IMG/VR virus record: IMGVR_UViG_3300045135_001635
Source of the DNA: a virus
Strand: one strand, 5' to 3'
Length of the DNA stretch: 64,000 nucleotides
Part shown: piece by piece, positions 27,601 through 46,779 of the stretch
How positions within the stretch are numbered: the stretch's first letter is position 1
Layout of the letters: each line of letters opens with the position of its first letter
Position numbers and translations under genes: made by a program
Notes under the pieces: model-generated
What the model was told of the DNA's origin: nothing
What the model saw: only the letters and a program-made list of their open reading frames with translations
The model's database searches: none

Positions 27601-30118
27601 TTGCGATTTCGCCAGAGTTAAGATCAATATCAGAACGTAAAGCAGCATCGCCAGCGATACGTGAAGCTTCTTCCGAAGAAATAGCAGACGCATTGGCTTG
27701 TTCAGCAGCAGTAGCACGTGATACTTCGTCAGCTAAATCAGAAGTTAATACACCTTCAGCAGCAGTTGCGCGAACAACTTCAGCAGAGATAGCATCAGCA
27801 TTATCTGAAATATCAGAAGCATTTTGATCAACATCAGAACGTAGAGCAGCATCGCCAGCGATACGCGCAGTTTCTTCAGCGTCAATAGCAGATTGTAAAG
27901 CAGTATCAGCAACACCACGAGCAGAAGCTTCATCAGCGATTGCTTGAGCATTTGCTTGTTCAGCAGCTTTCGCACGAGTTACTTCGTTTGTGATAGCAGC
28001 TGCGTTAGTAGCAACACCAGAAGTGTTAGCGTTAACGTCTGTACGTAAACCAGCTTCAACACCAGTCGCACGAGTTACTTCGTTAGAAATAGCAGTTGCG
28101 TTAGCTTGTTCAGCTGTAGTAGCGCGTGTTACTTCCGCAGCAAGGTCACTTGCTAACTGAGTATCAGCAGATTCACGAGCAGATGCTTCAGAGTCGATGT
28201 TAGTTTGTAAAGTAGAATCACCAGAAACACGAGCAGTTTGTTCTGCTACGATATCTGCTTGAGCAGTATCCATTTCTGTTTCTAATGTATCAGCACGACC
28301 TTCAAGGTTAGTAGCGCGTAAAGCAAGAGCGTTATCCGCAGCTTCACGAGTAGCAGCTTCGCTTGATACTTGACCGTCTGTGTAAGTGTTAGCAGCTTGT
28401 TGAGCAGATAAGATACGAGCAGAAACAGTGTTTCCAGCAGTACCGTCTACAGAAGCATCACCGATTAGAGCAGCGTCTTGTGCGTCAGCGTGAGCAATTG
28501 CGTCAGCTTCAGCTTGATCAGCTTTCTGAGTTGCGTCAGCTTTAGCAGAGTTAAGAACTACTGTATCAGCAGCAACAAAGTCAACTTCGATTTGATCGAT
28601 TTGTGACTGTAAGCCAGCGTCAGCAGAAGAACGTGAAGCAGCTTCAGCGTTGATGTTAGTTTGTAATACTGAGTCAGCAGAAGAACGAGCAGAAGCTTCG
28701 TTGTTGATTGCTGTAGTATTTGAAGCAACAAGCGCAGAAATCTCACCATCTACTTTCTGGAATTCAGCAACAATTTCTGTTAATGAATCAAGAGCAGCAG
28801 AATCTGTGTTAGAGATAACGTTGTCTAATTTAGCTTCGATGCGAGCTTCTTCGCCAGTAGCACGTAGAACTTCAGCAGCTAAATCATCAGCGATTGATTG
28901 TTCAGCGCCAGTAGCACGAACGATTTCAGCAGCAAGACCGTCAGTTAATACTTGGTCAGCAGCTTCCATAGCAGCTTCTAAATCAGATACTGATTGAGTC
29001 GCAGCAGAGATTGCTTGAGCTTTAGCAGTTGCGATACGGTCAGTAACTGTATTACCAGTAGAACCGTCAACAGATGCGTCGCCTACTAATAATGCGTCGT
29101 GTGCTTTAGCAGAAACTAAAGTCGCAGCATCACCAGAGTTGATAGCTGAAGTTAAGTCTGTACGGATAGCTGTATCAGCAACACCACGAGCAACGATTTC
29201 ATCTTCGATAGATGAAGCATTCGCAGCTTCTGCAGCAGTCGCACGAGCAACTTCGTCAGATAAATCAGATTGTAACTCAGAAATTTCTAAGTTAGTAGTT
29301 GAAATTTCAGCAGCAAGACCAGACTCAAGAGCGTCAATGTCGCCTTCAGCTGCAGTCAAACGTACGTCTAAAGCGTTGTCGCCAGAAACACGAGCAGAAG
29401 CTTCATCAGCAACAGCTTGAGTTAATGTAGCGTCAGCAGCTTGACGTGCTGTAGTTTCGTTAGCAATTGCCGTAGCGTTAGCTGTTTCAGCAGATGTCGC
29501 ACGAGTAACTTCGTTTGCGATAGCGCCAGAGTTAGCAATTACTGAAGCAGATAATACGTCATCAGCGTCTTGGAACGCTTCAACAATTTCTGCTAATGAG
29601 TTAAGAGCAACTTCATCTGTGTTAGATAAGATGTTGTCAATACGTAGTGAAAGAGCAGCGTCAGCAGCTTGATAGCCACTTTCGATTTGGTCTTCACGAG
29701 TTGTTGCGCGAGTTTGTTCTGCTACTACTGCGTCAGCATTTGCTTGTTCAGCAGCTTTAGCGCGAGTAACTTCGTTGTCAACTGCGGTTTGAAGCAATGC
29801 TTCAGCAGCAGACGCACGGTTACTTTCGACAGCAACAGCAGAAGAAATATCTTCAGCAACTGCGTCTTTTGCGCGAGCATCAGTAAAGAATAACGCATCG
29901 CCTTCTGCTAGATCATCAGTACTAAATGAACCAAAGAAGTCAGCGGTGTTAATTTTCTTTAAAGAGTCAGAACCAACATCATAGAGTAGAGTAAAACAAT
30001 CAGCTGGGTTAGCCATACCTGTTAGGGTAGACTGTCCCTGTACTGCACTTTCATCAAGTTTTGTGTTGATGACAGCCTTGTCGGCTAATGCAGGTGATTT
30101 AATTTGTCTAAATGACAT
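24656..30118 (-). CDS. Giant coiled-coil fibre protein (1820 aa), paralogue of 18719-24559
   Basis: E..RA..AE heptads, four L[DN][ST]LxEIV knots, STDDLxEG..YFT motifs, C-terminal beta domain (YRSAKYVV...TEYG). Confidence 0.75.
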   Translation of the reverse strand: MSFRQIKSPALADKAVINTKLDESAVQGQSTLTGMANPADCFTLLYDVGSDSLKKINTADFFGSFSTDDLAEGDALFFTDARAKDAVAEDISSAVAVESNRASAAEALLQTAVDNEVTRAKAAEQANADAVVAEQTRATTREDQIESGYQAADAALSLRIDNILSNTDEVALNSLAEIVEAFQDADDVLSASVIANSGAIANEVTRATSAETANATAIANETTARQAADATLTQAVADEASARVSGDNALDVRLTAAEGDIDALESGLAAEISTTNLEISELQSDLSDEVARATAAEAANASSIEDEIVARGVADTAIRTDLTSAINSGDAATLVSAKAHDALLVGDASVDGSTGNTVTDRIATAKAQAISAATQSVSDLEAAMEAADQVLTDGLAAEIVRATGAEQSIADDLAAEVLRATGEEARIEAKLDNVISNTDSAALDSLTEIVAEFQKVDGEISALVASNTTAINNEASARSSADSVLQTNINAEAASRSSADAGLQSQIDQIEVDFVAADTVVLNSAKADATQKADQAEADAIAHADAQDAALIGDASVDGTAGNTVSARILSAQQAANTYTDGQVSSEAATREAADNALALRATNLEGRADTLETEMDTAQADIVAEQTARVSGDSTLQTNIDSEASARESADTQLASDLAAEVTRATTAEQANATAISNEVTRATGVEAGLRTDVNANTSGVATNAAAITNEVTRAKAAEQANAQAIADEASARGVADTALQSAIDAEETARIAGDAALRSDVDQNASDISDNADAISAEVVRATAAEGVLTSDLADEVSRATAAEQANASAISSEEASRIAGDAALRSDIDLNSGEIANLDSDLSSEIARATAAEGVLTSDLAAEVTRATGVEAGLRTDVDTVTDRVDAIIGTSPETLDTLQEIVSAFEDADSDIQAVISANSGRLSVNEGDIDAVELRATDLETRAGSLEGRATALETEQSAQGGRLTVNEGDIDSLETKVGSASLETSATDLSAAVNEVHAELNVEAGKVSTLESEMDAVEGRASTLESEMDAVEGRATSLEGRMTTEEGNVDALETKVGSATLETVATDLSGAVNEIHAELDVEAGKVSVLEGEMDAVEGRATSLESRATATEAKDAEQDGRLTTNESDIDALETKVGTGAFDTTSQNIVGAVNEVHGEVDAIEARVTTNESDISDNAIAISTEQSRAEGQEALIRGEFAAADTALENAYIAADAVVKADAASDASTKADTAEANAKVYADTIVADEAVARENADNVLQSAITAEESARVSGDAALSNRATALETEMTATQSGAGLATDGSYVAPSGSNHLDLSTSLKDADAKLDAAIGAEKSRAEGVESGLQSQIDAEEAARIAGDSSLQSSLDAEVARAVAAEGVLSTGVADNAQAIVDEAAARVAADEALQGQIDFIKSNVDSAALDSLTEIVDAFQSADGTLTGLVSQNQTDIAQNAVDISDETAARVAAVSAEATARENADTALQTAVDGKVSKSGDTMSGELAMGGNKVSGVANGTVAGDAVNKGQLDAGLAAQHISQFSTTDLVEGVNQYFTDARAQDAISVVDVAGEGNVSKSGGVISIDTSKSVLELTDVVDNSIVDKEGFVLRAKTDGTGFELVSPDLLSFSRSKRQVFQGDGAQTVFAIDFDVTEQNAMVFVGGVIQDPSVHYFIDTENRTITFNGAIPVGTQAVLVATSSTSVGVLDPGSVTLETLAPNVKVFQQGTDVIVGTSSTTVSSFPMDVYRSAKYVVTVELDGEFETRECLVIHNGTNAYITEYGIIYTGDDLLGDTDVRVVNGVVELTYAAVSAGAVVTASVTYTDV

Positions 30119-33700: not shown

Positions 33701-34408
33701 TTAGAAAGATGAGATATCTTCTAAAACCATTTCACGGAATTCTTCAGAGGTATCGCTCATATCAAATACATATGATACGGTACAACGCCAAGAATCTTCT
33801 GTTTCCGCTGCGTGATATAAAACTTTGTCTTGTTCAGTCCAAGAACCGAAATAAGCAGCTTTACAAGTCCACTTACCTTTAGGGTCTTCACACTTTACAA
33901 TCTCTTTTGTTTCAGGGTGAACATAAGAGAAGTGACCATCGCCACCTTCAGAATAACTGAAGATTAAGTTATATCCTGGAGCATTATGGTTGCTATGCCA
34001 CGAAATGAAGCCACCTGGAGGGTACACGGCACATAACGCATTATGCTTAACAGAAAGGAAATTCATCATTCTGGCGTTAAGGTCACTTAACTTATGTGTC
34101 AAATCACGCTTAAAGATTGGGTCTGCGTCTCTCTCAAAGAAAGTATGCGACTTATCAGCAAGCTTGAAGTTATAGCCAACAATCATATCAGGAAAGCCTT
34201 CGTGTCCAGCACCTTGGTCTTTAACATCCTGTAGATATTCCATACCCATCCAATGCGGGCGTTGGCGTTTATGTTCTTTTGCCGTTAAATGGCAATTCTT
34301 TTCGAAACCTTCAAGAGTATGTAATTTAGAATACTCATTTAAGATTTCAAGCAACTCAGGGTTATTAACCTCTACGTGCTTTAAGTATTGGTCGTTAATC
34401 TGTGTCAT
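33701..34408 (-). CDS. Putative 2OG-Fe(II) oxygenase-fold protein (HxN...H...RxT)
   Basis: VYPPGGFISWHSNHNAPGYNLIF...LYHAA...WRCT; paralogue of 4478-5110. Confidence 0.55.
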   Translation of the reverse strand: MTQINDQYLKHVEVNNPELLEILNEYSKLHTLEGFEKNCHLTAKEHKRQRPHWMGMEYLQDVKDQGAGHEGFPDMIVGYNFKLADKSHTFFERDADPIFKRDLTHKLSDLNARMMNFLSVKHNALCAVYPPGGFISWHSNHNAPGYNLIFSYSEGGDGHFSYVHPETKEIVKCEDPKGKWTCKAAYFGSWTEQDKVLYHAAETEDSWRCTVSYVFDMSDTSEEFREMVLEDISSF

Positions 34409-35139
34409 ACGATTGGTTTATCCTTGTCTAGACCAGCCGAGAAGTGACGTAAGATAACTTCATCTTCAGGCTGAGTTCTTGCCCAGTTAAAAGCATTGTA
34501 ATAATTCCATCTTAAATCATCATCAAAGATTCCGATTTTAAGATCCTTATATTTTTCTTCTTTCTCAGTAAGCCACCATAGTGAAAATTGATCCCAACAT
34601 TTAAGGGAATCCGCATATCCTTCTGGCCACCAAGTATCATTCATTTGCTTATACGTTAGTTCCCACCAGTCTTGCATAAATTCGCGCACGATTGGTTTAG
34701 ACATATCATACAAACACACACCACCACAAAGAGTAAATTGAGCTTTACCTTCTGGCGTATCAAAATCACGTTCAGCATAAATGTAGGAGCGATCGTCAGT
34801 GAGTTCAGAGTAGACCATATCATAGTCTTTCATCTCATCCCAAACTTTAACGATATCTTCATGCTCACATTCCATATCAGCATCAATGTACATTGTTATA
34901 TCATATGGCGATTGAGCCATACCCCATAACTTAGCGCGATAATGGTCTTCACAAAAGATAACCGTATCGGCTACGTCATGACCACGTTCATCAATAAATC
35001 TTTCTTCGGTTACTAAACAAATGTTACAATCTTCGTAATAATCGCGAAGCGATTCCGCTAAGTTAAGCGCATACAAATAAAAGTTACGTTTGTGTGAACC
35101 AACGATTACAAAACCTTTGGTCTTTTCCATATTACTCAT
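34405..35139 (-). CDS. GT-A fold glycosyltransferase (DxD)
   Basis: A.SLR, RAKL....SPYDITMYIDAD, GGV, WDQFSL, RWNY, ILRHF (GT8-like pattern). Confidence 0.75.
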   Translation of the reverse strand: MSNMEKTKGFVIVGSHKRNFYLYALNLAESLRDYYEDCNICLVTEERFIDERGHDVADTVIFCEDHYRAKLWGMAQSPYDITMYIDADMECEHEDIVKVWDEMKDYDMVYSELTDDRSYIYAERDFDTPEGKAQFTLCGGVCLYDMSKPIVREFMQDWWELTYKQMNDTWWPEGYADSLKCWDQFSLWWLTEKEEKYKDLKIGIFDDDLRWNYYNAFNWARTQPEDEVILRHFSAGLDKDKPIV

Positions 35140-35578
35140 CTCCAATCTGTTCTTGTAGAATCATAATTGAATATAAGTCAACTTCAATACGGCTTTTCGC
35201 ACGTCTCAGTTTAGACTTGAGTTTACGGTTTTTAGAATTCTTAATCTCTTCAACTTCAAAAGCTTCTAACTTATAGTTGAAAAGTTTCTCTAATTTACGA
35301 GCCTTTTCATGCTCGACTTCACGTTGCTTATGCTCTTCAGCTTCAGCTTTTTTACGTTCTTCACGATCAGTTGTTTCTTTATCTATTTGGGCTTCGCCAA
35401 CAGAGTCAACAACTTCGTTAAATAATTCGTTTTCGTTACCTTCTTTGTCGTGACGATTTAATTTCATCACTTGACGAGTAACACGACCAACGTCGTCTTC
35501 CATCTCTAAAATACAATTCAATTGGCTTCGGTCTTCATTTTCCCAAAACGCGTTATCTAACCATTTTCTATAGCTCAT
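35132..35578 (-). CDS. Hypothetical protein (charged coiled coil; possible fibre chaperone)
   Basis: 148-aa ORF with a GGAG SD; first gene after the giant repeat protein. Confidence 0.55.
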   Translation of the reverse strand: MSYRKWLDNAFWENEDRSQLNCILEMEDDVGRVTRQVMKLNRHDKEGNENELFNEVVDSVGEAQIDKETTDREERKKAEAEEHKQREVEHEKARKLEKLFNYKLEAFEVEEIKNSKNRKLKSKLRRAKSRIEVDLYSIMILQEQIGDE

Positions 35579-35621: not shown

Positions 35622-35685
35622 TAATAAAATAAAAGGGGATATTCCTTTATCCCCTTATTATACAACATTCCTTAATCTATATCAA
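35622..35685 (-). promoter_or_regulatory. sigma70-type promoter (35657-35685) abutting a terminator hairpin (35633-35656)
   Basis: TTGATA-17 nt-TATAAT, then AAGGGGATA-AAGGAA-TATCCCCTT-TTATTTT. Confidence 0.7.
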
Positions 35686-38600
35686 GAAATTCGTACATAT
35701 AATGTGTAAGTTTCTACAATTGAGAATGTAGGTTGTATTGTTGTTCCAACGTAGTTACCTACGAAAGCACGCGAATAGTTACCAACATAATCTCTCGCAT
35801 AGTTACCTACGAACTCACCAACATAATTACCGACATAGTTACCAGCATATGAAGATACGCGAGTTCTTGAGTAGTTATCTGTGTAAGCACTTGTACGTAA
35901 ACGTGAGTAAGCTGAAACACGAACTCGACTAAACGTATCAGTTGAGTTACGAGTATATTCACCAACGAAACCACGTGTGTAGTTACCGATGAAATCGCCT
36001 ACGAAGTCACGCGCATAGTTACCGACATACTCGCCAGCAAATCCACGAGTGTAGTTACCAGTAAAGTCACCAGCGTAGTTACGAGCATAGTTACCGATGA
36101 AATCACGAGCAAAGTTACCAGTGAAAGTACGGTTATATGTGCCAGTATATTCGCCAGCAAAACCACGTGAGTAAGTACCTGTATATTGACCAGAGAATCC
36201 ACGTGAGTAAGTACCAGTGTACTGACCAGAGAATCCGCGAGTGTATGTACCAGCATACGAACTTGGACGAGTTCTTGAATAATACTCAAAACGTGTGCGT
36301 AAGAAGTTACGTGAGTAATTTCCAACGAAGTCACGAGAGTAAGTACCAGTGTACTGACCAGAGAATCCGCGAGTGTATGTACCAGCATAAGTGCTAAAGC
36401 GTGAACGGTTGTAAGTACTAAAACGAGCACGAACAAAGTTACGCGAGTAATTACCAACATAATCACGTGAGTACGCACCAGTATATTCGCCTACGAAGCC
36501 ACGTGTATATGTTCCAGCATAAGTGCTGAAGCGAGCGCGGTTGTAAGAGCTTACACGGTTACGAGAGAAGTTACGTGAGTAATTTCCGGTATATGAGTTA
36601 GCATATGTGCCTGTATATTCGCCTACGAAGCCACGTGTATACGTTCCTGCGTAAGTACTTAAACGAGTACGAGCATAAGCAGATACTCTTGAACGAGTAT
36701 ACGCACGAGCATAGTTACCTGTATAAGTTGTCGCATATGTACCAGTATATTCACCAACGAAACCGCGAGCGTAAGTACCAGCATATGAACTTGCGCGTGA
36801 ACGAGCGTAAGCAGATACTCTTGAACGAGTATACGCACGGGCATAGTTACCTGTAAACGTACGATTATATGTTCCAGTATATTCGCCTACGAATCCACGG
36901 CTGTATGTACCAGCATATGAACTTGGACGTGAACGAGAATAAGCAGAAACACGAGTGCGAGTATAAGCACGAGCATAGTTACCAGCGAAAGCACGTGAGT
37001 AAGTACCAGTATATTGACCAGAGAATCCACGGCTATAAGCACCAGTGTATTGTCCAGAGAATCCACGGCTGTATGTACCAGTGTACTGACCAGAGAATCC
37101 ACGAGTGTAGTTACCAATATAGTTACCAGCAAAGTTACCAACGTAATTACCAATGAAGTTACCAGCATAGTTACGTGCGTAATTACCTGTATACGTTCTT
37201 GCATAGTTACCTACGAAGTCACCAGTAAACGTTGTTACACGGTCACGAGCATATGTGCTGTTACGAGTACGAGCGTATGCAGAAACACGTGTACGAGCGT
37301 AAGCACTGTAACGAGTACGAGCTGAAGTACGAGCGTATTCACCAACGAAGTTACCTGCGTATTCGCCAGCATATCCGCGAGCATAGTTACCTACGTAAGA
37401 CGCATTTCTTGTACGAGCATAAGCACTATAACGAGTTCTAGTCGAAGTACGAGTACTTAAACGAGTAAAGTCGCCGACATAGTTTGTTACACGAGTACGC
37501 GAGTAAGCTGAGTAACGAGTACGAGTAGAAGTACGAGTACTTAAACGAGTAAAGTCGCCAACATAGTTTGTTATACGAGTACGAGCGTAAGCGCTGTAAC
37601 GAGTACGAGTAGAAGTACGTGTTGATAAACGAGTATACTCACCAACAAAGTTACCTGTAAACGTAGTGACGCGATCACGGATGAAGTCGCCAACATAGTT
37701 TGTTATACGAGTACGCGAGTAAGCTGAGTAACGAGTACGAGCTGAAGTACGAGCTGATAAACGAGTATATTCGCCAACAAAGTTACCCGTAAACGTAGTG
37801 ACGCGATCACGGATGAAGTCGCCGACATAGTTTGTAATACGAGTACGCGAGTAAGCTGAGTAACGAGTACGAGCTGAAGTACGAGTACTTGTACGCGCAT
37901 AGTTACCAACAAAGTTGCCAGTGAAGTTTGTTACACGGTTACGAGTAAAGTCGCCGACATAGTTTGTAATACGAGTACGCGAGTAAGCTGAGTAACGAGT
38001 ACGTGTAGAAGTTCTTGTAGAAGTTCTTGCGTAGTTACCAACGAAGTCACCTGCGTAAGAACCAGTACGAGTATAATAACCAGTATTAGTTGAAGTACGT
38101 GTAGAAGTACGCGCATATTCACCTACGAAGTCACCTGCGTAGTACAATGGACGAGCATAGTTACCTGTGTAATATAATGTACGAGCGTAATTACCAACAA
38201 AGTTACCAGCATATACTAATGTACGAGCATAGTTACCTGTGTAATATAATGTACGAGCGTAATTACCAACAAAGTTACCAGCATATACTAATGGACGAGC
38301 ATAGTTACCAGTATAGTAAGCTGTACGAGCGTAATTACCAACAAAGTCGCCAGTATAGACTAATGTACGAGCATAGTTACCAGTGTAATACAATGTACGA
38401 GCATAGTTACCAGCGTAAGAAGCAGCGCGAGTACGAGTATACGTTGGATAGTAAGCACGATCACGAGCATACGTTGGGTAGTAAGCGCGTTCACGAGTAT
38501 ACGTTGGGTAGTAAGCACGATCACGAGCAAAACCTCTTTCTACAGCACGAGATCTTGTAAAGTCTGGATAGTAAGCACGATCACGAGCATACGTTGGAGC

Positions 38601-41600
38601 TGCGTGACGAGCACGAGTATATTCTAAGCCATAAACTCTATATCGAGCATATGTTGCTGTTCTACTGTAATATGCTGTACCAACAAAGTTACCAGTAAAG
38701 TAAGCTGTTGACGGCCAACCAGGATCTCCGCCCCAAGCTTGATAAGTATATGATCTTGTACTTGTACGAGTAGAAGTCCCTGTACCAGCATATGCTAATG
38801 TACGAGCATAGTTACCAGTATATGTCCCAGTACGAGTGTAATTACCTGTGTAATAAACGTTACGAGAATAGTTACCAGTGTAGTAAGCTGTACCGATATA
38901 GTTACCCGTAAAATATCTTGTACCGACAAAGTTACCAACATAATATCTTGTACCGGCATAATCGCCAGTGTAATAAGCTGTACGAGCATAGTTACCTGTG
39001 TAATATAATGTACGAGCATAGTCACCAGTATACGAAGCAGCACGGTCACGGGTATACGTTGGATAGTAAGCACGGTCACGAGCATAAGTCGGTGACGTTG
39101 TGTAGTCTGTGATACGAGTACGGGCATATGTCGGATAGTAAACACGACCACGAGTGTACGTCGGTGACGTTGTGTAGTTTGTTACACGGTCACGGGTATA
39201 CGTTGGATAGTAAGCACGGTCACGAGCATAAGTCGGTGACGTTGTGTAGTTTGTTACACGGTCACGGGTATACGTTGGATAGTAAGCACGGTCACGAGCA
39301 TAAGTCGGTGACGTTGTAGAAGTTCTTGTAGAAGTTCTTGCGTAGTTACCAACAAAGTCTCCAGCATAGTACAATGTACGAGTATATGCTAATGTACGTG
39401 TTGAAGTACGCGTAGAAGTACGAGCGTATTCACCAACAAAGTCTCCAGCATAATTACCTGCGAATCCACGAGCATAGTTACCAACAAAGTCGCCAGTAAA
39501 TGTCGTTGCGTAGTTACCTACGAAGTCACCAGCATAATCTGTGATACGAGTTCTTGCGTATTCACCAACAAAGTTACCAGCATAATTACCTGCGAATCCA
39601 CGAGAATAGTTACCAACAAAGTCGCCAGTAAATGTCGTTGCGTAGTTACCAACAAAGTTTCCTGCGTAATCAGTGATGCGAGTACGAGCATAATTACCAG
39701 TATATTCACCAGCAAAGTTACCAGCATATCCACGAGAATAGTTACCAACAAAGTCGCCAGTAAATGTCGTTGCGTAGTTACCAACAAAGTTTCCTGCGTA
39801 ATCTGTGATACGAGTACGAGCGTAATTACCAGTATATTCACCAGCAAAGTTTCCTGCGTATCCACGAGCGTAGTTACCAACGAAGTCGCCTACGAAATCG
39901 CGAGCGTAATTACCAGTATATTCACCAGCAAAGTTTCCTGCGTATCCACGAGCGTAGTTACCAACGAAGTCGCCTACGAAATCGCGAGCATAGTTACCTG
40001 TGTAATCACCAGCAAAGTTTCCTGCGTATCCACGAGCATAGTTACCTACGTAAGAAGCACCACGTGTACGAGCATAAGCTGAGTAACGAGTACGAGCTGA
40101 CGTACGTGTTGAGGTACGAGCATAATTACCAACGAAGTTACCAGCAAAACCACGAGCATAGTTGCCTACGAAGTTGCGTGAGTAATTTCCAACGAAGCCA
40201 CGAGCATAGTTACCAATAAAGTTACCAGCATAATCTGTGATACGAGTTCTAGCAAAAGTAGAAACGCGCGCACGAGAGAAAGCACCAGCAAAGTTAGTAA
40301 CACGATCACGAGTATAGTCTGTTACACGAGTACGACCATAATCAGCAGCGTATACAGAAACACGGTTACGTGAATATGTACCAGAATATGTGCTGATACG
40401 GTTACGTGAATATGTACCAGAGTAAGAAGAAACACGTGTTCTTGAGTAAGTACCAGCATAAGCTGAAACTCTTGAACGAGTAAAGTTACGTGAGTAATTT
40501 CCTAAGAACGAACGGCTGTAATTTCCAATGAAGTTACGAGCATAATTTCCGCTATACGTTGATATACGAGTACGAGCATATGTACCAGCGTAAGATGAAA
40601 CACGACCACGAGTAAAGTTACGTGAGTAATTACCTGTAAATCCGCGTGAATAGTTTCCTACGAATTGACGAGCATATGTTCCAACATAAGTTGATACGCG
40701 TGTACGAGCATATGTGCCTGTAAATGTAGAAACACGACCACGAGTAAAGTTACGGCTGTAATTACCAGTAAATCCGCGAGCATAGTTACCTACGAATCCT
40801 CGAGAGTATGTACCTGCGTAAGCAGAAACTCGTGTGCGAGCATACGTTCCAGAAAACGAGCTTGGGCGTGTACGAGTAAATTCACCAGCATAGTTCCCTA
40901 AGAAACCTCTTGTGTAGTTACCTACGAATTGACGAGCGTATTCACCAACATAAGTTGATACACGTGTACGTGAGTAAGTGCCAGAGAAAGCGCTTGTACG
41001 AGTACGTGTAAATTCGCCAGTATAGTTACCTACGAATTGACGAGCATAGTTCCCAGCAAAGGCACGAGCGTATTCGCCAGTATACGTTGAAACACGGTTA
41101 CGCGAGTAAGTACCAGAGAAAGCACTTGTACGAGTACGAGTAAATTCGCCAGCAAAATTACCAGTAAATGAACGAGCATAGTTACCGATGAAGTCACGTG
41201 AGTAATTACCAGTATACGTTGATACACGTGTACGTGAGTAAGTTCCAGTATACGTTGAAATACGGTTACGTGAGTAAGTACCAGTGTAAGTAGAAACACG
41301 GTTACGTGCGTATGTACCAGCATAAGCTGAAACACGACCACGAGCGTAAGTAGAAGGACGAGTGCGAGTAAAGAACCCAGCAAAGTCTGTAATACGGTTA
41401 CGAGTATAAACTGATACACGGTTACGTGCGTATGTACCAGCGAATACACCAGTAAACGCTTCTAAACGGTTACGTGTATAAGAAGAAATACGAGTACGAG
41501 CATAGTTACCGACGAAATCGCCAACGTATTCTCCCGCAAAACCTCTTGAATAGTTACCAGCAAAATCACGAGTGTAATTACCAACGTAATCACCAATGAA

Positions 41601-42485
41601 ATCCTGAGTAGTTGTACGCGTTGAAGTACGCGCGAACGCCGAACTACGTGTGCGAGCATAAGAAGAAACACGAGCACGAACATATGAACTGTTACGTGTA
41701 CGAGTGTAATCTATTTGCGCAGTAGTGCGTTGTGTATTGATTGCTGTACCTACAGCTTTCCAAGTTCCGGCATCAGTCGGTGCACCTTGCGCACTTGACC
41801 TTAATTGATATGAACCGATATTACCTGAAGTAGCACGTAGAGTTTTGATACGTTGACCCAATACTTCTTGGATCTCGTTATCTGTCATTTCTTGGAAACC
41901 GTCAAAGCCAGAACCGTCATAGCGGATCTTAACTGGACGAGTTGGGTTTACAACAGTCATTGCTGTACGAACCCAAATGTGGTAGTTTGTTACGCTTCCG
42001 TCACCACGTGTATCAGTGAATACATTCTCAATAAAGATTGTATAGTCTGAACCAGGAGTTGAAGATGCTAACTTGTATGTACCGATATAGTCATTTTCGA
42101 CCATATTTCCAAGAACACGATTAGCGAGGTTTGTTAAATCTTGGTCTACCATTTCGTAGAAACCAGGATTGTCACCTGCTTCGTAGTAACCCACAGGAAT
42201 GTTTACGCCACTTTCTACAGAAGGACCAGCAACTTGTTTTAGTGTGGTTGTTGTAGTTCCAGAAGTAATCTGTGATGCTGGGTGTGTACCAGTAGATTCG
42301 TTGAAAAATGTATCAACGTAAGTACCGACAGGAACACCAGCTGATAAAGTCAATGCGCCTACATCAGTAGGACTTAACATTGCTTGACCAACAGCATAAG
42401 CCAGATAGTTTTCTTCTAGTGGAGTGAATTCCTTCAGGTCACCATTCGAATTTAGTATTTTTAAAGGGATACTAGATGCTGACAC
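35682..42485 (-). CDS. Giant R/Y/G/T-rich repeat protein (2267 aa); predicted ultra-long beta-hairpin filament
   Basis: GTG start with late promoter; ~255-aa globular N-domain; ~1990-aa two-residue-periodic repeat with mirror complementarity around QAWGGDPGWPS. Confidence 0.85.
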   Translation of the reverse strand: MSASSIPLKILNSNGDLKEFTPLEENYLAYAVGQAMLSPTDVGALTLSAGVPVGTYVDTFFNESTGTHPASQITSGTTTTTLKQVAGPSVESGVNIPVGYYEAGDNPGFYEMVDQDLTNLANRVLGNMVENDYIGTYKLASSTPGSDYTIFIENVFTDTRGDGSVTNYHIWVRTAMTVVNPTRPVKIRYDGSGFDGFQEMTDNEIQEVLGQRIKTLRATSGNIGSYQLRSSAQGAPTDAGTWKAVGTAINTQRTTAQIDYTRTRNSSYVRARVSSYARTRSSAFARTSTRTTTQDFIGDYVGNYTRDFAGNYSRGFAGEYVGDFVGNYARTRISSYTRNRLEAFTGVFAGTYARNRVSVYTRNRITDFAGFFTRTRPSTYARGRVSAYAGTYARNRVSTYTGTYSRNRISTYTGTYSRTRVSTYTGNYSRDFIGNYARSFTGNFAGEFTRTRTSAFSGTYSRNRVSTYTGEYARAFAGNYARQFVGNYTGEFTRTRTSAFSGTYSRTRVSTYVGEYARQFVGNYTRGFLGNYAGEFTRTRPSSFSGTYARTRVSAYAGTYSRGFVGNYARGFTGNYSRNFTRGRVSTFTGTYARTRVSTYVGTYARQFVGNYSRGFTGNYSRNFTRGRVSSYAGTYARTRISTYSGNYARNFIGNYSRSFLGNYSRNFTRSRVSAYAGTYSRTRVSSYSGTYSRNRISTYSGTYSRNRVSVYAADYGRTRVTDYTRDRVTNFAGAFSRARVSTFARTRITDYAGNFIGNYARGFVGNYSRNFVGNYARGFAGNFVGNYARTSTRTSARTRYSAYARTRGASYVGNYARGYAGNFAGDYTGNYARDFVGDFVGNYARGYAGNFAGEYTGNYARDFVGDFVGNYARGYAGNFAGEYTGNYARTRITDYAGNFVGNYATTFTGDFVGNYSRGYAGNFAGEYTGNYARTRITDYAGNFVGNYATTFTGDFVGNYSRGFAGNYAGNFVGEYARTRITDYAGDFVGNYATTFTGDFVGNYARGFAGNYAGDFVGEYARTSTRTSTRTLAYTRTLYYAGDFVGNYARTSTRTSTTSPTYARDRAYYPTYTRDRVTNYTTSPTYARDRAYYPTYTRDRVTNYTTSPTYTRGRVYYPTYARTRITDYTTSPTYARDRAYYPTYTRDRAASYTGDYARTLYYTGNYARTAYYTGDYAGTRYYVGNFVGTRYFTGNYIGTAYYTGNYSRNVYYTGNYTRTGTYTGNYARTLAYAGTGTSTRTSTRSYTYQAWGGDPGWPSTAYFTGNFVGTAYYSRTATYARYRVYGLEYTRARHAAPTYARDRAYYPDFTRSRAVERGFARDRAYYPTYTRERAYYPTYARDRAYYPTYTRTRAASYAGNYARTLYYTGNYARTLVYTGDFVGNYARTAYYTGNYARPLVYAGNFVGNYARTLYYTGNYARTLVYAGNFVGNYARTLYYTGNYARPLYYAGDFVGEYARTSTRTSTNTGYYTRTGSYAGDFVGNYARTSTRTSTRTRYSAYSRTRITNYVGDFTRNRVTNFTGNFVGNYARTSTRTSARTRYSAYSRTRITNYVGDFIRDRVTTFTGNFVGEYTRLSARTSARTRYSAYSRTRITNYVGDFIRDRVTTFTGNFVGEYTRLSTRTSTRTRYSAYARTRITNYVGDFTRLSTRTSTRTRYSAYSRTRVTNYVGDFTRLSTRTSTRTRYSAYARTRNASYVGNYARGYAGEYAGNFVGEYARTSARTRYSAYARTRVSAYARTRNSTYARDRVTTFTGDFVGNYARTYTGNYARNYAGNFIGNYVGNFAGNYIGNYTRGFSGQYTGTYSRGFSGQYTGAYSRGFSGQYTGTYSRAFAGNYARAYTRTRVSAYSRSRPSSYAGTYSRGFVGEYTGTYNRTFTGNYARAYTRSRVSAYARSRASSYAGTYARGFVGEYTGTYATTYTGNYARAYTRSRVSAYARTRLSTYAGTYTRGFVGEYTGTYANSYTGNYSRNFSRNRVSSYNRARFSTYAGTYTRGFVGEYTGAYSRDYVGNYSRNFVRARFSTYNRSRFSTYAGTYTRGFSGQYTGTYSRDFVGNYSRNFLRTRFEYYSRTRPSSYAGTYTRGFSGQYTGTYSRGFSGQYTGTYSRGFAGEYTGTYNRTFTGNFARDFIGNYARNYAGDFTGNYTRGFAGEYVGNYARDFVGDFIGNYTRGFVGEYTRNSTDTFSRVRVSAYSRLRTSAYTDNYSRTRVSSYAGNYVGNYVGEFVGNYARDYVGNYSRAFVGNYVGTTIQPTFSIVETYTLYVRIS
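35750..41712 (-). repeat. Nested coding tandem repeats (units of 8, 10, 12, 24, 28 and 44 aa) with mirror-image organisation about ~38730
   Basis: For example, 72-bp units x4 at ~39050-39320 and x4 at ~38140-38410; 132-bp units x3 on each arm. Confidence 0.9.
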
Positions 42486-42521: not shown

Positions 42522-42529
42522 TATTTATA
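42522..42529 (-). promoter_or_regulatory. T4 late promoter TATAAATA
   Basis: Exact match ~37 nt upstream of the giant repeat gene. Confidence 0.85.
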
Positions 42530-42712: not shown

Positions 42713-43183
42713 TTATGGTTTGACTGGCCATTCTAGTTCATCAAGAGATGATGGATTGTCTAAAGTAGCAGGGAAGTCACGTAACGATTGACGGTATACA
42801 CGATACTCAGCAACTTGTTCATCAGTTAATGGAGCATCAACAGTTTGAGTCCAATCAGTCGCAGCAATCATATGATTACGAATTGTTTTGATATCTGACA
42901 TAAATGCATCAGCATCCCATTCCCAATCAGTTCCATTGTATATAGCGTGTCTGTTAGGTGGTGTTCCTAAGTGAATCAATGAACCACTGTCATACACCCA
43001 TTCTACAGTGTTAAAATTATCTTCCATAAAACCAGAAGGAATGTTATCTTCAGATATGTGTATAACTCTTTCGCCAGTAGGTTTTAACCCTTCCGGAGGT
43101 AATGTAGCCATAGGAAACTCAACACTTATAAGTTGTTTCGTTAACTCATCAATAACTGCTACATATTTTATTACTTTTGACAT
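42713..43183 (-). CDS. Tail fibre assembly chaperone (Tfa-like)
   Basis: C-terminal RN.MIAATDWTQ..DAPL....YRQSLRDFP......WPVKP. Confidence 0.8.
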   Translation of the reverse strand: MSKVIKYVAVIDELTKQLISVEFPMATLPPEGLKPTGERVIHISEDNIPSGFMEDNFNTVEWVYDSGSLIHLGTPPNRHAIYNGTDWEWDADAFMSDIKTIRNHMIAATDWTQTVDAPLTDEQVAEYRVYRQSLRDFPATLDNPSSLDELEWPVKP

Positions 43184-43201: not shown

Positions 43202-43951
43202 TTATTCTTGTGCGAGTAAAACTGCGCCCCAATTCGTATAATAATTTATTCTTGTTTCGCTAGAATTTGGATCATTATAATAAGTAGTCCAAACGTTCTG
43301 AGGTGCTGAAAAATTTTGATACGTATAATCTATATATTGTGAATAATAATCACCATTTGAGAAAAATGTGGATACTATACCTGCCATATTATAACTATAC
43401 GTAAAATATTCTATTTTAGACCAATCAAACTGAATCCAATCATTTTTATTAGTAGTTATTCTAGATATATCACCGCTACCATAACCACTCATAGAGTTAT
43501 GTGGTTTCAATGATGTAACTTGTAATTTAGAATTTACTTTTATAGTTCTACTATCAAAAGAAACTTCATTACCTGAAGTAAGAACTTTTAATCCATAATC
43601 TCCTACTGGTGTAACTTTACTCGCTAAATCTAATACATAATAATCTAAACTAATATTACTAAAATCAGCTTCCAATGGATATTTTTTATTACCAGAAGAT
43701 TTAAACGTTACAGAAGATAAAGTGCTGTCGTACTCTATAACTATATAATCTTTTTGATAGTTGCTTGTATTTCTATGTTTCGGTTTTATAAAAATTAATC
43801 TAGTTCTATTAGGATCAGTTCCAAGTCCAGTGATACTACTACCAGTACCTTTTTTTGTCACAACATAATTCACTAAACCTATCGTAGTGTCTATTTGTAC
43901 AATTTCATTTCCTGCTGCATCGAAAGATTTTACTTGTAATCCATATGACAT
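43202..43951 (-). CDS. Tail-tip associated protein
   Basis: MSYGLQV.. and an internal DYGLKV...G...FDS repeat, typical of genes that follow central tail fibres. Confidence 0.5.
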   Translation of the reverse strand: MSYGLQVKSFDAAGNEIVQIDTTIGLVNYVVTKKGTGSSITGLGTDPNRTRLIFIKPKHRNTSNYQKDYIVIEYDSTLSSVTFKSSGNKKYPLEADFSNISLDYYVLDLASKVTPVGDYGLKVLTSGNEVSFDSRTIKVNSKLQVTSLKPHNSMSGYGSGDISRITTNKNDWIQFDWSKIEYFTYSYNMAGIVSTFFSNGDYYSQYIDYTYQNFSAPQNVWTTYYNDPNSSETRINYYTNWGAVLLAQE

Positions 43952-44736
43952 TATGAAATCCTCACTGCTGTTACTTTTATTGTGACCGAAGTACTACTAC
44001 TATTAGTTATTGTAAGCGTATCACCAGAAGTTGAAAACGATATAAAATCAGACCTAGCTGTAGTTGAATATATAACTTTACTAGGATCACTTACATCTTT
44101 TATAGTAAGTGACACCGAACCATTCCCAGCAATATTTTGACTCGATAAATGCGCTAAGTTAAATAACTTAGTTTGTGGGTTAATTATTTCAGTTACACCA
44201 TCTGGACCATATACAACTAAACCATATTCAGCGTCAGAGCCTGAAGCAACATAAGTTGGACCAGAACCACTACCACCTGAAATCGTTCTTGTATATGTAC
44301 TTGTTCTGGTATAGTTTCTCGTATAGTCAGCAATATAGTTACCGATATAATCGCTAGAATATGTTCCAGTATAGTTACCTAAGAAATCTCTGGTATAATT
44401 ACCAATGAAATTACCAAGATAACTTCTGGTATATGTTCCAGTATAGTTACCGAGATATTCTCTTGAATAATTACCTGCGAAAAATCTTGAGTAATTACCG
44501 ATGAAATTTCCAGTAAAATCTCGGGTATAGTTACCGACATATCTTTCTTCACGAGGATCCGTGCGGTATCCAGCGTAAGATGATATTCTAGTAGAAGTAG
44601 CACCTGAATAATATGCCGTAAAAGATCTAGAACTTGTGTGCGTATCTCTTGTAAATGTTGCAGAGCTACCTACACCAACACGAGTAAGCGTACGAGTGTA
44701 TGTACTTTGTCTTGTATAACTTACTATTCTTGCCAT
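43951..44736 (-). CDS. Structural protein: GNY/xTR beta-repeat N-half plus YGL-type C-domain
   Basis: YVGNYTRDFTGNFIGNYSR... uses the same vocabulary as the 2267-aa protein; C-terminal EYGLVVYGPDG. Confidence 0.6.
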   Translation of the reverse strand: MARIVSYTRQSTYTRTLTRVGVGSSATFTRDTHTSSRSFTAYYSGATSTRISSYAGYRTDPREERYVGNYTRDFTGNFIGNYSRFFAGNYSREYLGNYTGTYTRSYLGNFIGNYTRDFLGNYTGTYSSDYIGNYIADYTRNYTRTSTYTRTISGGSGSGPTYVASGSDAEYGLVVYGPDGVTEIINPQTKLFNLAHLSSQNIAGNGSVSLTIKDVSDPSKVIYSTTARSDFISFSTSGDTLTITNSSSTSVTIKVTAVRIS

Positions 44737-44746
44737 TATCTATCCC

Positions 44747-45208
44747 TTATTCAATAGCAGTTCCACCACCAGTGAAGAATGAAGTTCTTCCTTCAATGGT
44801 GCGAGCATAGGTTGATTCTCTTGTAAAACTTGTGCCGTAATATGCGGTAGAAGTAACGGTAAAGTACTCCGTTCTTACTTTGCTATAATAAGCGGTAAAC
44901 GATACTAATTTGTAAGTTGATTCTGTGAAGAACGCAAATGTCTCGCGAGTGTATGCCGAAGTACGGTCTACTAATTTATCACGAGTGTATGTACTTTCAC
45001 GGGCGCGAGTAAAATCTCTTGAGTAGTTACCGACGTAAGTATTTTCGCCATCTACAGTACTCGTACTCGTTCTATCAGTAGTATACTCGCCAGCATAATT
45101 TTTAGAGTAAGTACCGTCATAACTACCTGTGCGAGTTTTTACAAAATCGCGAGTAGATATAGCGGCGAAATCCAACACACGTGTAAATGATAAAGTATAA
45201 TCAGCCAT
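44747..45208 (-). CDS. Small GNY/xTR beta-repeat protein
   Basis: YAGEYTTDRTSTSTVDGENTYVGNYSRDFTRARESTYTR. Confidence 0.55.
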   Translation of the reverse strand: MADYTLSFTRVLDFAAISTRDFVKTRTGSYDGTYSKNYAGEYTTDRTSTSTVDGENTYVGNYSRDFTRARESTYTRDKLVDRTSAYTRETFAFFTESTYKLVSFTAYYSKVRTEYFTVTSTAYYGTSFTRESTYARTIEGRTSFFTGGGTAIE

Positions 45209-45219
45209 TATTTAAAACC

Positions 45220-46779
45220 TTATTCGAGTCGACCAAATTTGACTCTTAAATTATTACTACCGTCGAATATCTTCATGACATCATTCGTCATTGTCATCGA
45301 ACCATTATTACCAGTAGAGCTTATATTTAGCGAACCAGTAACTGTAGCATTCGAGAGTTCAACGTTATCGCCATTAATCGTAAATGGTTTAACCGCGTTA
45401 TTACTTGCGTTAACAATACCAAACTTATCGGCAGTAATAACCATATCAGCCGTTGCGCCATCGTTATTAAACTCGATACCAGCAACGTGGCCATTAGCAT
45501 TTAAATTTAATGTATATACAGCAGAAGCATTACCTAAATCATCAACTTGTGTTTGTAAGTTTGACGTCGCTGTAGCGAAAAAGCTGTCGCTACTATCAAT
45601 CCGAGATTCTAAGTTAATAGCAAAGTTTGAAGTTGCTGTTAATCTATCTGAATCAGCATCTATTCTTGAATTGAGTTCACTCTTTGCCGTAGATACCGCA
45701 CTTGTAATAGCAGGGTTCCAAGGAGAACCGTCTAAGTCAGATCTAAGATTAGTAACATCAGAACTCAACGAAACAAGTTTATCACTATCTAAATCTACTC
45801 GAGTTTTCAACGCTGAAGTTGCGTCCGCATTAGCTTGTATGGTTCCAGACGGACCATCTACTAATGTTAATCGACTTTCTAAATTCGTTATATCTCCAGT
45901 GATAACACTGATTGAATCACTGTTTGCGTTAATTAACGCATAAAGGTCATCAGTAATACCGCCAACCGCATTAGATACTTCTTCTGGAGTAATGGTAAGA
46001 CCTTCGGAAATCGCACTATCAAGTCTCGTTTCGAACGTACTAAATTGACCAGATAAAGCAGATAGTGAACTATCGTTAGCCGTTACTTGAGCAAGTATTT
46101 GTTGGTCAGCAGCAGCGCTTAATGTAATTTGTGTTTGTAGGTTACTATCTAATAATTTTAATTCTGCGTCTAAATCAAGTATAGATTGAGAAACAACATT
46201 AATCTCATCTGAGTTTGCGTTTATTCTTGTTTCTAGAATATTGAGAGAACCGCCGATAGCTTCAACTATAGTCGCAGAGTCTATATCAATAGATCCTGTA
46301 AATTGAGCGCCCAGATCAACTAAGTCTTGAGACAGTACTTCAATACCGCTTTCAAGTACTGATATTTGTGATGTTAATGAGCTATTCGCCGTTGAAAGAG
46401 CCGAGATACCGTCATTTAAATCGTCGTAGCTTGTAGATAGATTAGTAAACTGTTGAGCTAGTAAGATAAACCCGCCGTCAACACTATCTATCCTTGATAC
46501 TATTCCGGTCTCAGCTAATATTTCATAGAACTGACCTGAGTCTATTTGACCATTTATTTCAGTATTGAATATGATTGATTGGATATAATCAGAGTCTATT
46601 ATGTTAATAAATGTACTTTGATCAATATAATTGTTGATCGTATCGCTGTTGATATAGGTATTGACTACATTACGGATCGCGTCACTATCTACTACCCAGC
46701 TTGCTAATTCAAAGTTCTCGTTTATCTTGTCTATTCCAGCATTGATATTGTCTGCTAGATTTACTATTTGAAATGGCAT
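45220..46779 (-). CDS. Coiled-coil fibre with DUF1983-like (lambda J-type) C-terminus
   Basis: DKINENF N-terminus, long heptads, YTLNLNANGHVAGI...ITADKFGIV, ends IFDGSNNLRVKFGRL. Confidence 0.7.
   Translation of the reverse strand: MPFQIVNLADNINAGIDKINENFELASWVVDSDAIRNVVNTYINSDTINNYIDQSTFINIIDSDYIQSIIFNTEINGQIDSGQFYEILAETGIVSRIDSVDGGFILLAQQFTNLSTSYDDLNDGISALSTANSSLTSQISVLESGIEVLSQDLVDLGAQFTGSIDIDSATIVEAIGGSLNILETRINANSDEINVVSQSILDLDAELKLLDSNLQTQITLSAAADQQILAQVTANDSSLSALSGQFSTFETRLDSAISEGLTITPEEVSNAVGGITDDLYALINANSDSISVITGDITNLESRLTLVDGPSGTIQANADATSALKTRVDLDSDKLVSLSSDVTNLRSDLDGSPWNPAITSAVSTAKSELNSRIDADSDRLTATSNFAINLESRIDSSDSFFATATSNLQTQVDDLGNASAVYTLNLNANGHVAGIEFNNDGATADMVITADKFGIVNASNNAVKPFTINGDNVELSNATVTGSLNISSTGNNGSMTMTNDVMKIFDGSNNLRVKFGRLE

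Follow-up and report, generated by a model that had tools for sequence, protein, structure and literature searches.

Why should a viral protein carry some 2000 residues of a four-residue repeat, the second half of which, read backwards, complements the first? The question is raised by a gene on the minus strand of virus record IMGVR_UViG_3300045135_001635 (IMG/VR), of which one stretch of 64,000 nucleotides was analyzed (the window, on which all positions are counted). The gene, P0001, encodes 2267 amino acids, and computation shows a single antiparallel register between the two arms of its repeat, a rule for the residues that face each other, duplications mirrored on both arms, conservation of the plan in a family of relatives, and closure of the repeat at its base. 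We consider it likely that the protein is a host-recognition fibre of a marine T4-like myophage, with a shaft made of one giant intramolecular hairpin. The gene and its parts are as follows.

35682..42485 (-): whole gene of the candidate hairpin-fibre protein, 2267 amino acids, with a GTG start and its stop codon at 35682-35684; the start agrees with that of homologues
41709..42485 (-): N-terminal base domain (N-domain), residues 1-259, conserved and non-repetitive
38736..41708 (-): outgoing arm (N-arm), residues 260-1250, period-4 repeat with R/Y/G/F/S on face A and T/A/N/V/S/D on face B
38715..38735 (-): turn W1251-GGDPG-W1257, 7 residues, holding the register centre and the sole parity flip of the repeat
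35745..38714 (-): returning arm (C-arm), residues 1258-2247, the complement of the N-arm under i+j=2507
35685..35744 (-): C-tail, residues 2248-2267, conserved, ending in ETYTLYVRIS; predicted beta-strand inserting into the N-domain
40443..41282 (-): N-arm tandem zone, residues 402-681, period 44; mirror partner C-arm 1826-2105
36171..37010 (-): C-arm tandem zone, residues 1826-2105, period 44; mirror partner N-arm 402-681

Homologues of the protein start at the equivalent point, with M-SASSIPLK. The repeat region extends from residue ~260 (DYTRTR, window position ~41708) to residue ~2247 (GNYVG, ~35745) and consists almost exclusively of T, Y, R, G, A, S, N, F and V, arranged as a strict four-residue repeat [Y/F]-x-[G/R/S]-x. 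For aromatic residues the autocorrelation stays at ~0.5 for all lags divisible by 4 in the tested range, which ended at 40, and the period-4 phase runs without a break over residues ~251 to ~1147 and ~1267 to ~2245. Face A of the arms is composed of R (28%), Y (24-27%), G (19-20%), F (11-14%) and S (7-9%), face B of T (26-28%), A (18-20%), N (14%), V (11%), S (9%) and D (4-7%), and the repeat region has a net charge of +188. Its sole non-repeat element is formed by residues 1246-1262, flanked by period-10 blocks; here the odd/even face flips once (residues ~1240-1260), and here lies the register centre, between G1253 and D1254 of W-GGDPG-W (window position ~38726).

The original prediction, made from the letters of this DNA, was that the chain travels outward for ~990 residues and returns, and that one sharp value of K near 2x1252 would be found on pairing N-arm residue i with C-arm residue K-i. 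Scanning all K bore this out: K=2507 is the sole optimum by mutual information, by counts of Arg:Arg (R:R) pairs and by gapless alignment over 983 pairs, with ~985 residues going out and coming back in exact antiparallel register. Mutual information between i and K-i has a single peak at K=2505-2507, with values of 0.57-0.67 against means of 0.46-0.49 (standard deviation ~0.03-0.04) for K of the same mod-4 class, and in terms of local-window z-scores the peak at K=2507 reaches z 5-7 (up to 6.8). At this register R:R occurs once in 971 pairs, against an average of ~34 at other K of the same phase and a mean of 34.9 (minimum 21) in 1000 shuffles of four-residue blocks. R:S/T pairs are absent (0, ~24 expected), and both aromatic:R (188, 137 expected) and R:G (85, 37 expected) are enriched. 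Avoidance of R:R is not found when the arms are shifted in parallel, the minimum being 2.0%. A leave-window-out score could be computed for 15 windows of 60 residues. With up to 241 registers in competition, K=2507 ranks between 1 and 7 in 14 of them and is 19th in one; the register is therefore supported along the full length and not by a single region. Gapped local alignment of the N-arm with the reversed C-arm returns a path free of gaps, its 983 pairs running from 262:2245 to 1244:1263. In the pairing written out residue by residue, YY doublets, which shift strand parity, sit opposite YY doublets of the other arm, Arg-rich blocks face Gly/aromatic blocks and, near the tip, 10-mer Y-blocks face P-blocks. 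The last two features had been read off by hand, and that hand pairing (Y260:G2247, R262:Y2245, R264:G2243, S266:F2241 and so on) turns out to be exactly the register i+j=2507.

The arms also agree in their local tandem periods, which read 44, 28, 44, 24, 10 on the way out and 10, 24, 44, 28, 44 on the way back. The zones that face each other are listed here.

402-681 / 1826-2105: period 44 in both
752-891 / 1616-1755: period 28 in both
892-1031 / 1476-1615: period 44 in both
1032-1171 / 1336-1475: period 24 in both
1102-1241 / 1266-1405: period 10 in both

Because facing zones are complementary rather than similar, homology between the arms does not explain the matched duplications. Copies of the 44-residue units differ by two-sided changes that keep to allowed pairs, for example S:F<->G:R, G:F<->R:Y and F:S<->R:G, and further G:S<->R:Y and R:F to G:R. 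Inverted repeats at the DNA level were considered as the origin of the arm symmetry and ruled out, since none joins the two halves: the search found two short chance pairs only, both within the N-terminal part. These observations bear on one alternative, that the protein is an ordinary one-way fibre, its shaft a parallel trimer, or else a disordered protein of low complexity, with arms that make no contact and a symmetry that is a by-product of repeat evolution. The sequence is indeed repeat-rich and of low complexity, there is no confident predicted model of the arms, and no known family is matched. Such a protein, with no DNA palindrome that could generate the pattern, leaves unexplained why there is a single antiparallel register, why R:R is absent and why periods are mirrored on dissimilar arms; it accounts neither for the compensatory changes nor for the equal arms across relatives and the docking of the C-tail on the N-domain, both described below. 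We regard this alternative as most improbable.

Relatives were found through the N-domain. The family that it defines counts at least 359 cluster representatives (50% identity), and the N-domain also matches 10 long metagenomic proteins. C48C1 (Kyanoviridae per NCBI) is the sole GenBank phage with a member, a 3347-amino acid protein annotated as hypothetical with an N-domain 63% identical to that of P0001. Searches of Pfam and PHROGs with the whole protein and with the N-domain gave no family, only a chance-level MerE match; Pfam searches with five homologues gave no match; and we found no paper describing this family or architecture. Among the 150 best representatives, 99 carry ETYTLYVR at their very C-terminus, together with the N-domain, at lengths of 318-3893 amino acids, and these proteins are therefore complete. 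Between the conserved ends lie inserts of ~110 to ~3600 residues, and the plan is shared by all: the N-domain is followed by an aromatic period-4 arm, then comes a turn or a globular centre, and the second arm leads back to the C-tail. Homologues with other arm lengths, for which the original prediction had suggested a search, thus exist, and their arms are kept equal.

In C48C1 the entire N-arm (265-1297) aligns without gaps to six consecutive reversed segments of the C-arm. The first repeat residues match the last ones, and gaps are confined to the C-arm, at non-repeat insertions between repeat segments. The N-arms of the homologues P0004 and P0005 likewise align gaplessly with the reversed C-arm, all gaps lying in the C-arm; P0005 has one insertion more and about the same total of paired residues. 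With a pair matrix trained on the protein of the window alone, antiparallel scores exceed parallel ones in all three (C48C1, 591 vs 267; P0004, 562 vs 254; P0005, 519 vs 251). Gapped alignment was used for C48C1 as a window-by-window search for the best K is too degenerate at this low complexity, and a whole-protein mutual-information scan of distant homologues with large central domains gave no informative signal. The lateral globular insertions of the C48C1 homologue (L001:10001-20044), P0004 and P0005 are all in the returning arm, with none in the outgoing arm; across the relatives globular domains occur at the turn and along the returning arm, and the domain families on record for P0003-P0005 are FG-GAP and laminin-G-type lectin. 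In P0004 and P0005 a block of FG-GAP repeats lies within the N-terminal base domain.

The register can also be anchored at the base. Bounding each insert by two conserved motifs, one in the N-domain and one in the C-tail, and applying the same offset as in P0001 defines one closure register per protein. Among 92 complete relatives this is the top-ranked antiparallel register in 13, where 0.15 would be expected by chance (each protein offering hundreds to thousands of registers), and it stays the same in proteins whose inserts measure ~210 to ~2000 residues. In 40 of the 92 the best antiparallel centre is at most 3% away from the insert midpoint. A matrix-free mutual-information test on basal arm segments places the closure register at rank 2 or better in 17 of 80 relatives (1.9 expected; median z 1.9). 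The repeat vocabulary differs in other members: by eye, P0008 seems to have a Lys/Arg-rich N-arm and an Asp/Glu-rich C-arm. P0111 has a clean A-B | B-A block order. In other family members mirrored tandem periods were no more than weak or partial (P0109, P0104 and P0025).

How the two ends of the insert meet was addressed by structure prediction. Residues 1-330 and 2177-2267, predicted as a complex with a 9-row alignment for both parts, scored 0.87, and the best of 3 controls scored 0.00; 58 of 80 solved complexes attain this mark, against 2 of 110 mismatched pairs, counts that are only rough here given the custom alignment. Contacts agreed between runs to at least 47%, with a partner predicted local distance difference test score (pLDDT) of at least 42. 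The confident part of the predicted interface lies between tail residues 2244-2267 and N-domain residues 221-263, where tail residues 2260-2265 form a strand between N-domain strands 223-229 and 241-248. An AlphaFold 2 (AF2) model of the 496-amino acid homologue P0051, built from a 77-sequence alignment, has an N-domain at pLDDT 90-98 and two long strands, 244-263 and 473-494, at pLDDT above 90. Taken together, the two predictions make the repeat region an insertion into a small domain, between its last two strands, with the C-tail predicted to add a beta-strand to this base domain and so to close the hairpin.

Foldseek searches of PDB and BFVD with the base domain gave no match at E<=0.001, and a shape search of the ESM Atlas returned the family's own viral clusters only. 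The four best matches of the base-domain model in VIA-align, all beta-prism/MABP folds with Z 5.2-7.2, stand clearly above unrelated rows and under the caution line of Z 8, below which a match may mean merely a common arrangement:

8b6v_A: Z 7.2, root-mean-square deviation 3.9, 122 residues aligned
2qp2_A: Z 6.8, root-mean-square deviation 3.7, 114 residues aligned
3tow_A: Z 5.7, root-mean-square deviation 3.7, 108 residues aligned
6sb1_A: Z 5.2, root-mean-square deviation 6.0, 119 residues aligned

Domains of this fold include the C-terminal domain of MACPF proteins and the P2 domain of perforin-2, which have no sequence relation to the fibre protein and an unrelated function; the P2 domain carries an extended beta-hairpin.

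The statistic i+j is blind to whether a pair forms within one chain or between two, and phage fibres are usually oligomers, so that the N-arm of one chain might pair with the C-arm of another in a domain-swapped or antiparallel dimer, or in a higher oligomer. The turn, or the globular tip domain, is exactly central in P0001 and in C48C1; the base-anchored register, with its centre at the insert midpoint, is the best one in the 13 of 92 relatives and is the same whatever the insert length; and the C-tail is predicted to complete the sheet of the N-domain. Pairing between chains would moreover put attachment domains at both ends of the fibre, which would be unusual. We therefore judge intermolecular pairing improbable, and prefer a hairpin within one chain.

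The most serious competitor accepts that the arms pair antiparallel and proposes that the ribbon then folds into a shorter, compact body (stacked meanders, a ribbon solenoid or a supercoil), with the superperiods of 44, 28, 24 and 10 as its turns. Both arms do share discrete superperiods, and Gly-Asn and Gly-Asp, good turn formers, recur every 4-8 residues in the fibre protein. Prediction by AF2 from the single sequence also speaks for local stacking of the beta-solenoid type: in the tip fragment 1104-1403 (300 residues) the only confident part, ~1153-1233 in the period-10 Y-block, is drawn at pLDDT 72-81 as 8-residue strands joined by 2-residue Gly-Asn turns, which would make this block a compact meander and not a ribbon. 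Against this local picture, taken from a single-sequence run with low overall confidence, stand the long-range register and the mirrored periods. A meander would invert the relation i+j=2507 in every second strand, and the relation holds in each successive unit, the period-10 zone included, without alternation. The period-4 phase, in addition, stays intact over ~900 residues per arm. On balance we find a compact body unlikely, though less so than either of the other two alternatives.

Several results weigh against the extended hairpin that we favour. The two-stranded ribbon of ~330 nm that the original prediction envisaged was not built by AF2: the tip fragment has a mean pLDDT of 45 and no long hairpin, with the meander just described as its one confident part, and the arms of P0051 (272-470) come out at pLDDT 33-45 without secondary structure. 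Nor were the arm segments in the complex prediction confidently placed or paired, and to our knowledge there is no structural precedent for a free ribbon of two strands ~330 nm in length. On the side of the family, many members with other repeat vocabularies give no clear register in these tests, and P0012 has a direct instead of a mirrored block order, with arms that seem unequal by eye (unquantified). C48C1 is the one GenBank carrier, and no paper on this phage was found. Lastly, tandem copies are related and not independent, so that nominal p-values within P0001 are inflated and significance is overstated; it is for this reason that independent evidence was sought in the relatives, where the family-wide register tests are free of this effect.

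On the intramolecular hairpin, the chain would leave its conserved base domain, run outward for ~985 residues as a strand with a strict two-faced four-residue repeat, turn at W-GGDPG-W, and come back over ~985 residues in exact antiparallel register, its final 20 residues joining the base domain as a beta-strand and closing the hairpin. Face A obeys a pairing rule in which Arg lies opposite Tyr/Phe or Gly, Ser opposite an aromatic residue, and Gly opposite an aromatic residue or Arg, and which avoids Arg:Arg, Arg:Ser and Gly:Gly, and face B pairs small residues (T, A, V, S, N, D). Length changes by duplications matched on both arms, and relatives set globular domains at the turn or as bulges of the returning arm. 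We infer that the arms adopt a beta-ribbon conformation, that the protein is part of the virion, and that it provides long-reach attachment to the host surface through its tip or lateral domains. The shaft could measure up to ~0.33 nm x 985 = ~325 nm, and the Trp-rich tip loop or the added domains would contact the host. It may consist of one ribbon or of three chains; trimers are usual among phage fibres, and here one would form a six-stranded tube.

A chain that goes out and comes back is known in principle. In the needle of T4 gp37 (D10-D11) the chain runs to the receptor-binding tip and then back, segments 811-881 and 1010-1026 co-fold in the proximal collar, and Gly packs on an aromatic residue across strands (G921/F970) (PMC6957217). 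That needle (residues ~799-1026) is a trimer with seven iron ions coordinated by the His residues of His-x-His motifs, and gp37 is a late structural host-recognition protein that depends on chaperones (PMC6957217). The fibre protein is like it in that its termini are predicted to co-fold, its tip lies at the turn, and Gly stands opposite aromatic residues. It differs in having ~985 residues per arm, a strict four-residue repeat with its Arg/Tyr/Gly rule, mirrored duplications and a different base fold, and, unlike the His/iron core of gp37, it has only 3 His and 0 Cys in all 2267 residues. Comparison of the whole protein with all PDB chains by phmmer gave two chance-level matches (E ~0.8) and no fibre protein. 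The original statement that no appendage of this architecture had been described agrees with our literature search, with the reservation that the out-and-back principle itself was known from the gp37 needle.

Triple beta-helices, triple beta-spirals, collagen-like shafts and coiled coils are all one-way, from an N-terminal anchor to a C-terminal tip, with repeats of 3, 7, 8 or ~15 residues. P0001 resembles other phage shafts in being a long repetitive shaft from a fibre gene cluster, and departs from the one-way ones in its four-residue repeat and its termini, which are predicted to lie together. The Gly at every third residue of collagen-like or polyglycine-II structures is not found here, the periodicity being 4. 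In evolutionary logic, not in chemistry, RNA stem-loops offer an analogy: opposed arms under a pairing rule, compensatory changes, equal arm lengths, one-arm insertions as bulges and a variable functional part at the loop. Unlike in RNA, the complements are of side-chain size and of the cation-pi type, the rule, under which Tyr can face Arg, Gly or Ser, is degenerate, and the structure is inferred.

The repeat code is new, as are the mirrored duplications and the base fold, and there is a substantial chance that the protein represents a new fibrous fold class. Taken at its full extent, the proposal would be a 'protein stem-loop': a class of two-stranded beta-ribbons of almost any length (~50 to ~1000 pairs per arm), governed by a cross-strand pairing rule, evolving like RNA helices through compensatory substitutions and matched duplications, grown from one hairpin of the base domain, bearing receptor-binding domains at the loop or at bulges, and serving marine myophages as an ultra-long, length-tunable line for catching hosts. 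For this whole proposal we see the arguments as evenly balanced.

The surroundings of the gene agree with a structural appendage, as the original prediction had held on the strength of the late promoter, and the host-recognition neighbourhood adds to this. The elements next to the gene are the following.

42522..42529 (-): TATAAATA, a T4-type late-promoter motif, 36 nucleotides upstream of the start codon; putative function
42713..43183 (-): tail-fibre assembly chaperone-like protein (Pfam Phage_tail_APC), directly upstream, at the equivalent position in C48C1
33701..35578 (-): three downstream genes, of 148, 246 and 235 amino acids, next to the fibre gene also in distant relatives

The proteins of the three downstream genes are 37-39% identical to the neighbours of homologue P0006, and behind P0075 and the C48C1 homologue there are genes of comparable size. 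The 246-residue protein has a D-A-D motif and sub-threshold matches to Glycos_transf_2 (E 0.017; 0.0012 in an orthologue), and the 235-residue protein resembles viral clusters auto-named Asp/Asn beta-hydroxylase (0.92) or 2OG-Fe(II) oxygenase (0.86), which is a lead only. The three may tentatively be taken as a candidate module, GT-A-like and Asp/Asn-hydroxylase-like, that modifies the fibre, whose face B is rich in Asn/Asp/Thr/Ser.

The phage is a marine T4-like myovirus. Its head and tail genes are 76% identical in nucleotide sequence to those of C48C1, and the identity to the capsid gene of the OM43 phage Melnitz is 73%. In the window the fibre gene is surrounded by a baseplate wedge gene and by genes for a 1773-amino acid protein assigned to a PHROG family without a name, for a collagen-like fibre and for two more giant proteins of fibre-like character. 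A hypervariable host-recognition cluster has been described for pelagi- and cyanomyophages (PMC7029224), and the present region, with its variable fibre genes next to baseplate genes, corresponds to it.

Further observations concern this region. The two giant proteins (18719-24559(-), 1946 amino acids; 24656-30118(-), 1820 amino acids) are rich in Ala/Asp/Ser/Glu/Leu with heptad-like repetitive middles, and look like coiled-coil fibres of ~270-290 nm at ~0.15 nm per residue. The phage may carry several appendages on the ~300 nm scale, the coiled-coil-like ones at ~270-290 nm and the hairpin fibre at an inferred ~325 nm. The collagen-like fibre (55027-57519(-), 830 amino acids) is of the Gly-X-Y type, has very strong PHROG fibre matches and coincides with a local GC peak of 0.48. 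At 45220-46779(-) lies the gene of a 519-residue protein with a C-terminal lambda-J-like Phage_Tail_Tip domain (Pfam E 9e-9); after it come small genes and the chaperone-like gene that directly precedes the gene of the giant fibre. Two small proteins (43951-44736(-), 261 amino acids; 44747-45208(-), 153 amino acids) use the tetrad vocabulary GNY/GNF/TRD/TRT of the giant fibre, the larger one having a globular C-terminal part that ends in VRIS. The two (43951-45208) were considered as mini-hairpins and rejected, their antiparallel complementarity score being no better than the parallel one; with respect to the giant fibre they may be an adaptor, an added strand or a mini-fibre.

If the structure is true, this would be by far the longest beta-hairpin known, and a rare protein in which register-specific complementarity of the base-pair kind, together with compensatory evolution, can be read from one sequence. 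It would expose a clear blind spot of current structure predictors and offer a simple design rule for rigid or semi-rigid protein ribbons of programmable length. For the phages themselves it would mean a large, unannotated marine fibre family (at least 359 clusters at 50% identity) whose tip and lateral domains can be exchanged, and it would bear on the search for hosts by phages whose bacteria are small and thinly spread in the ocean.

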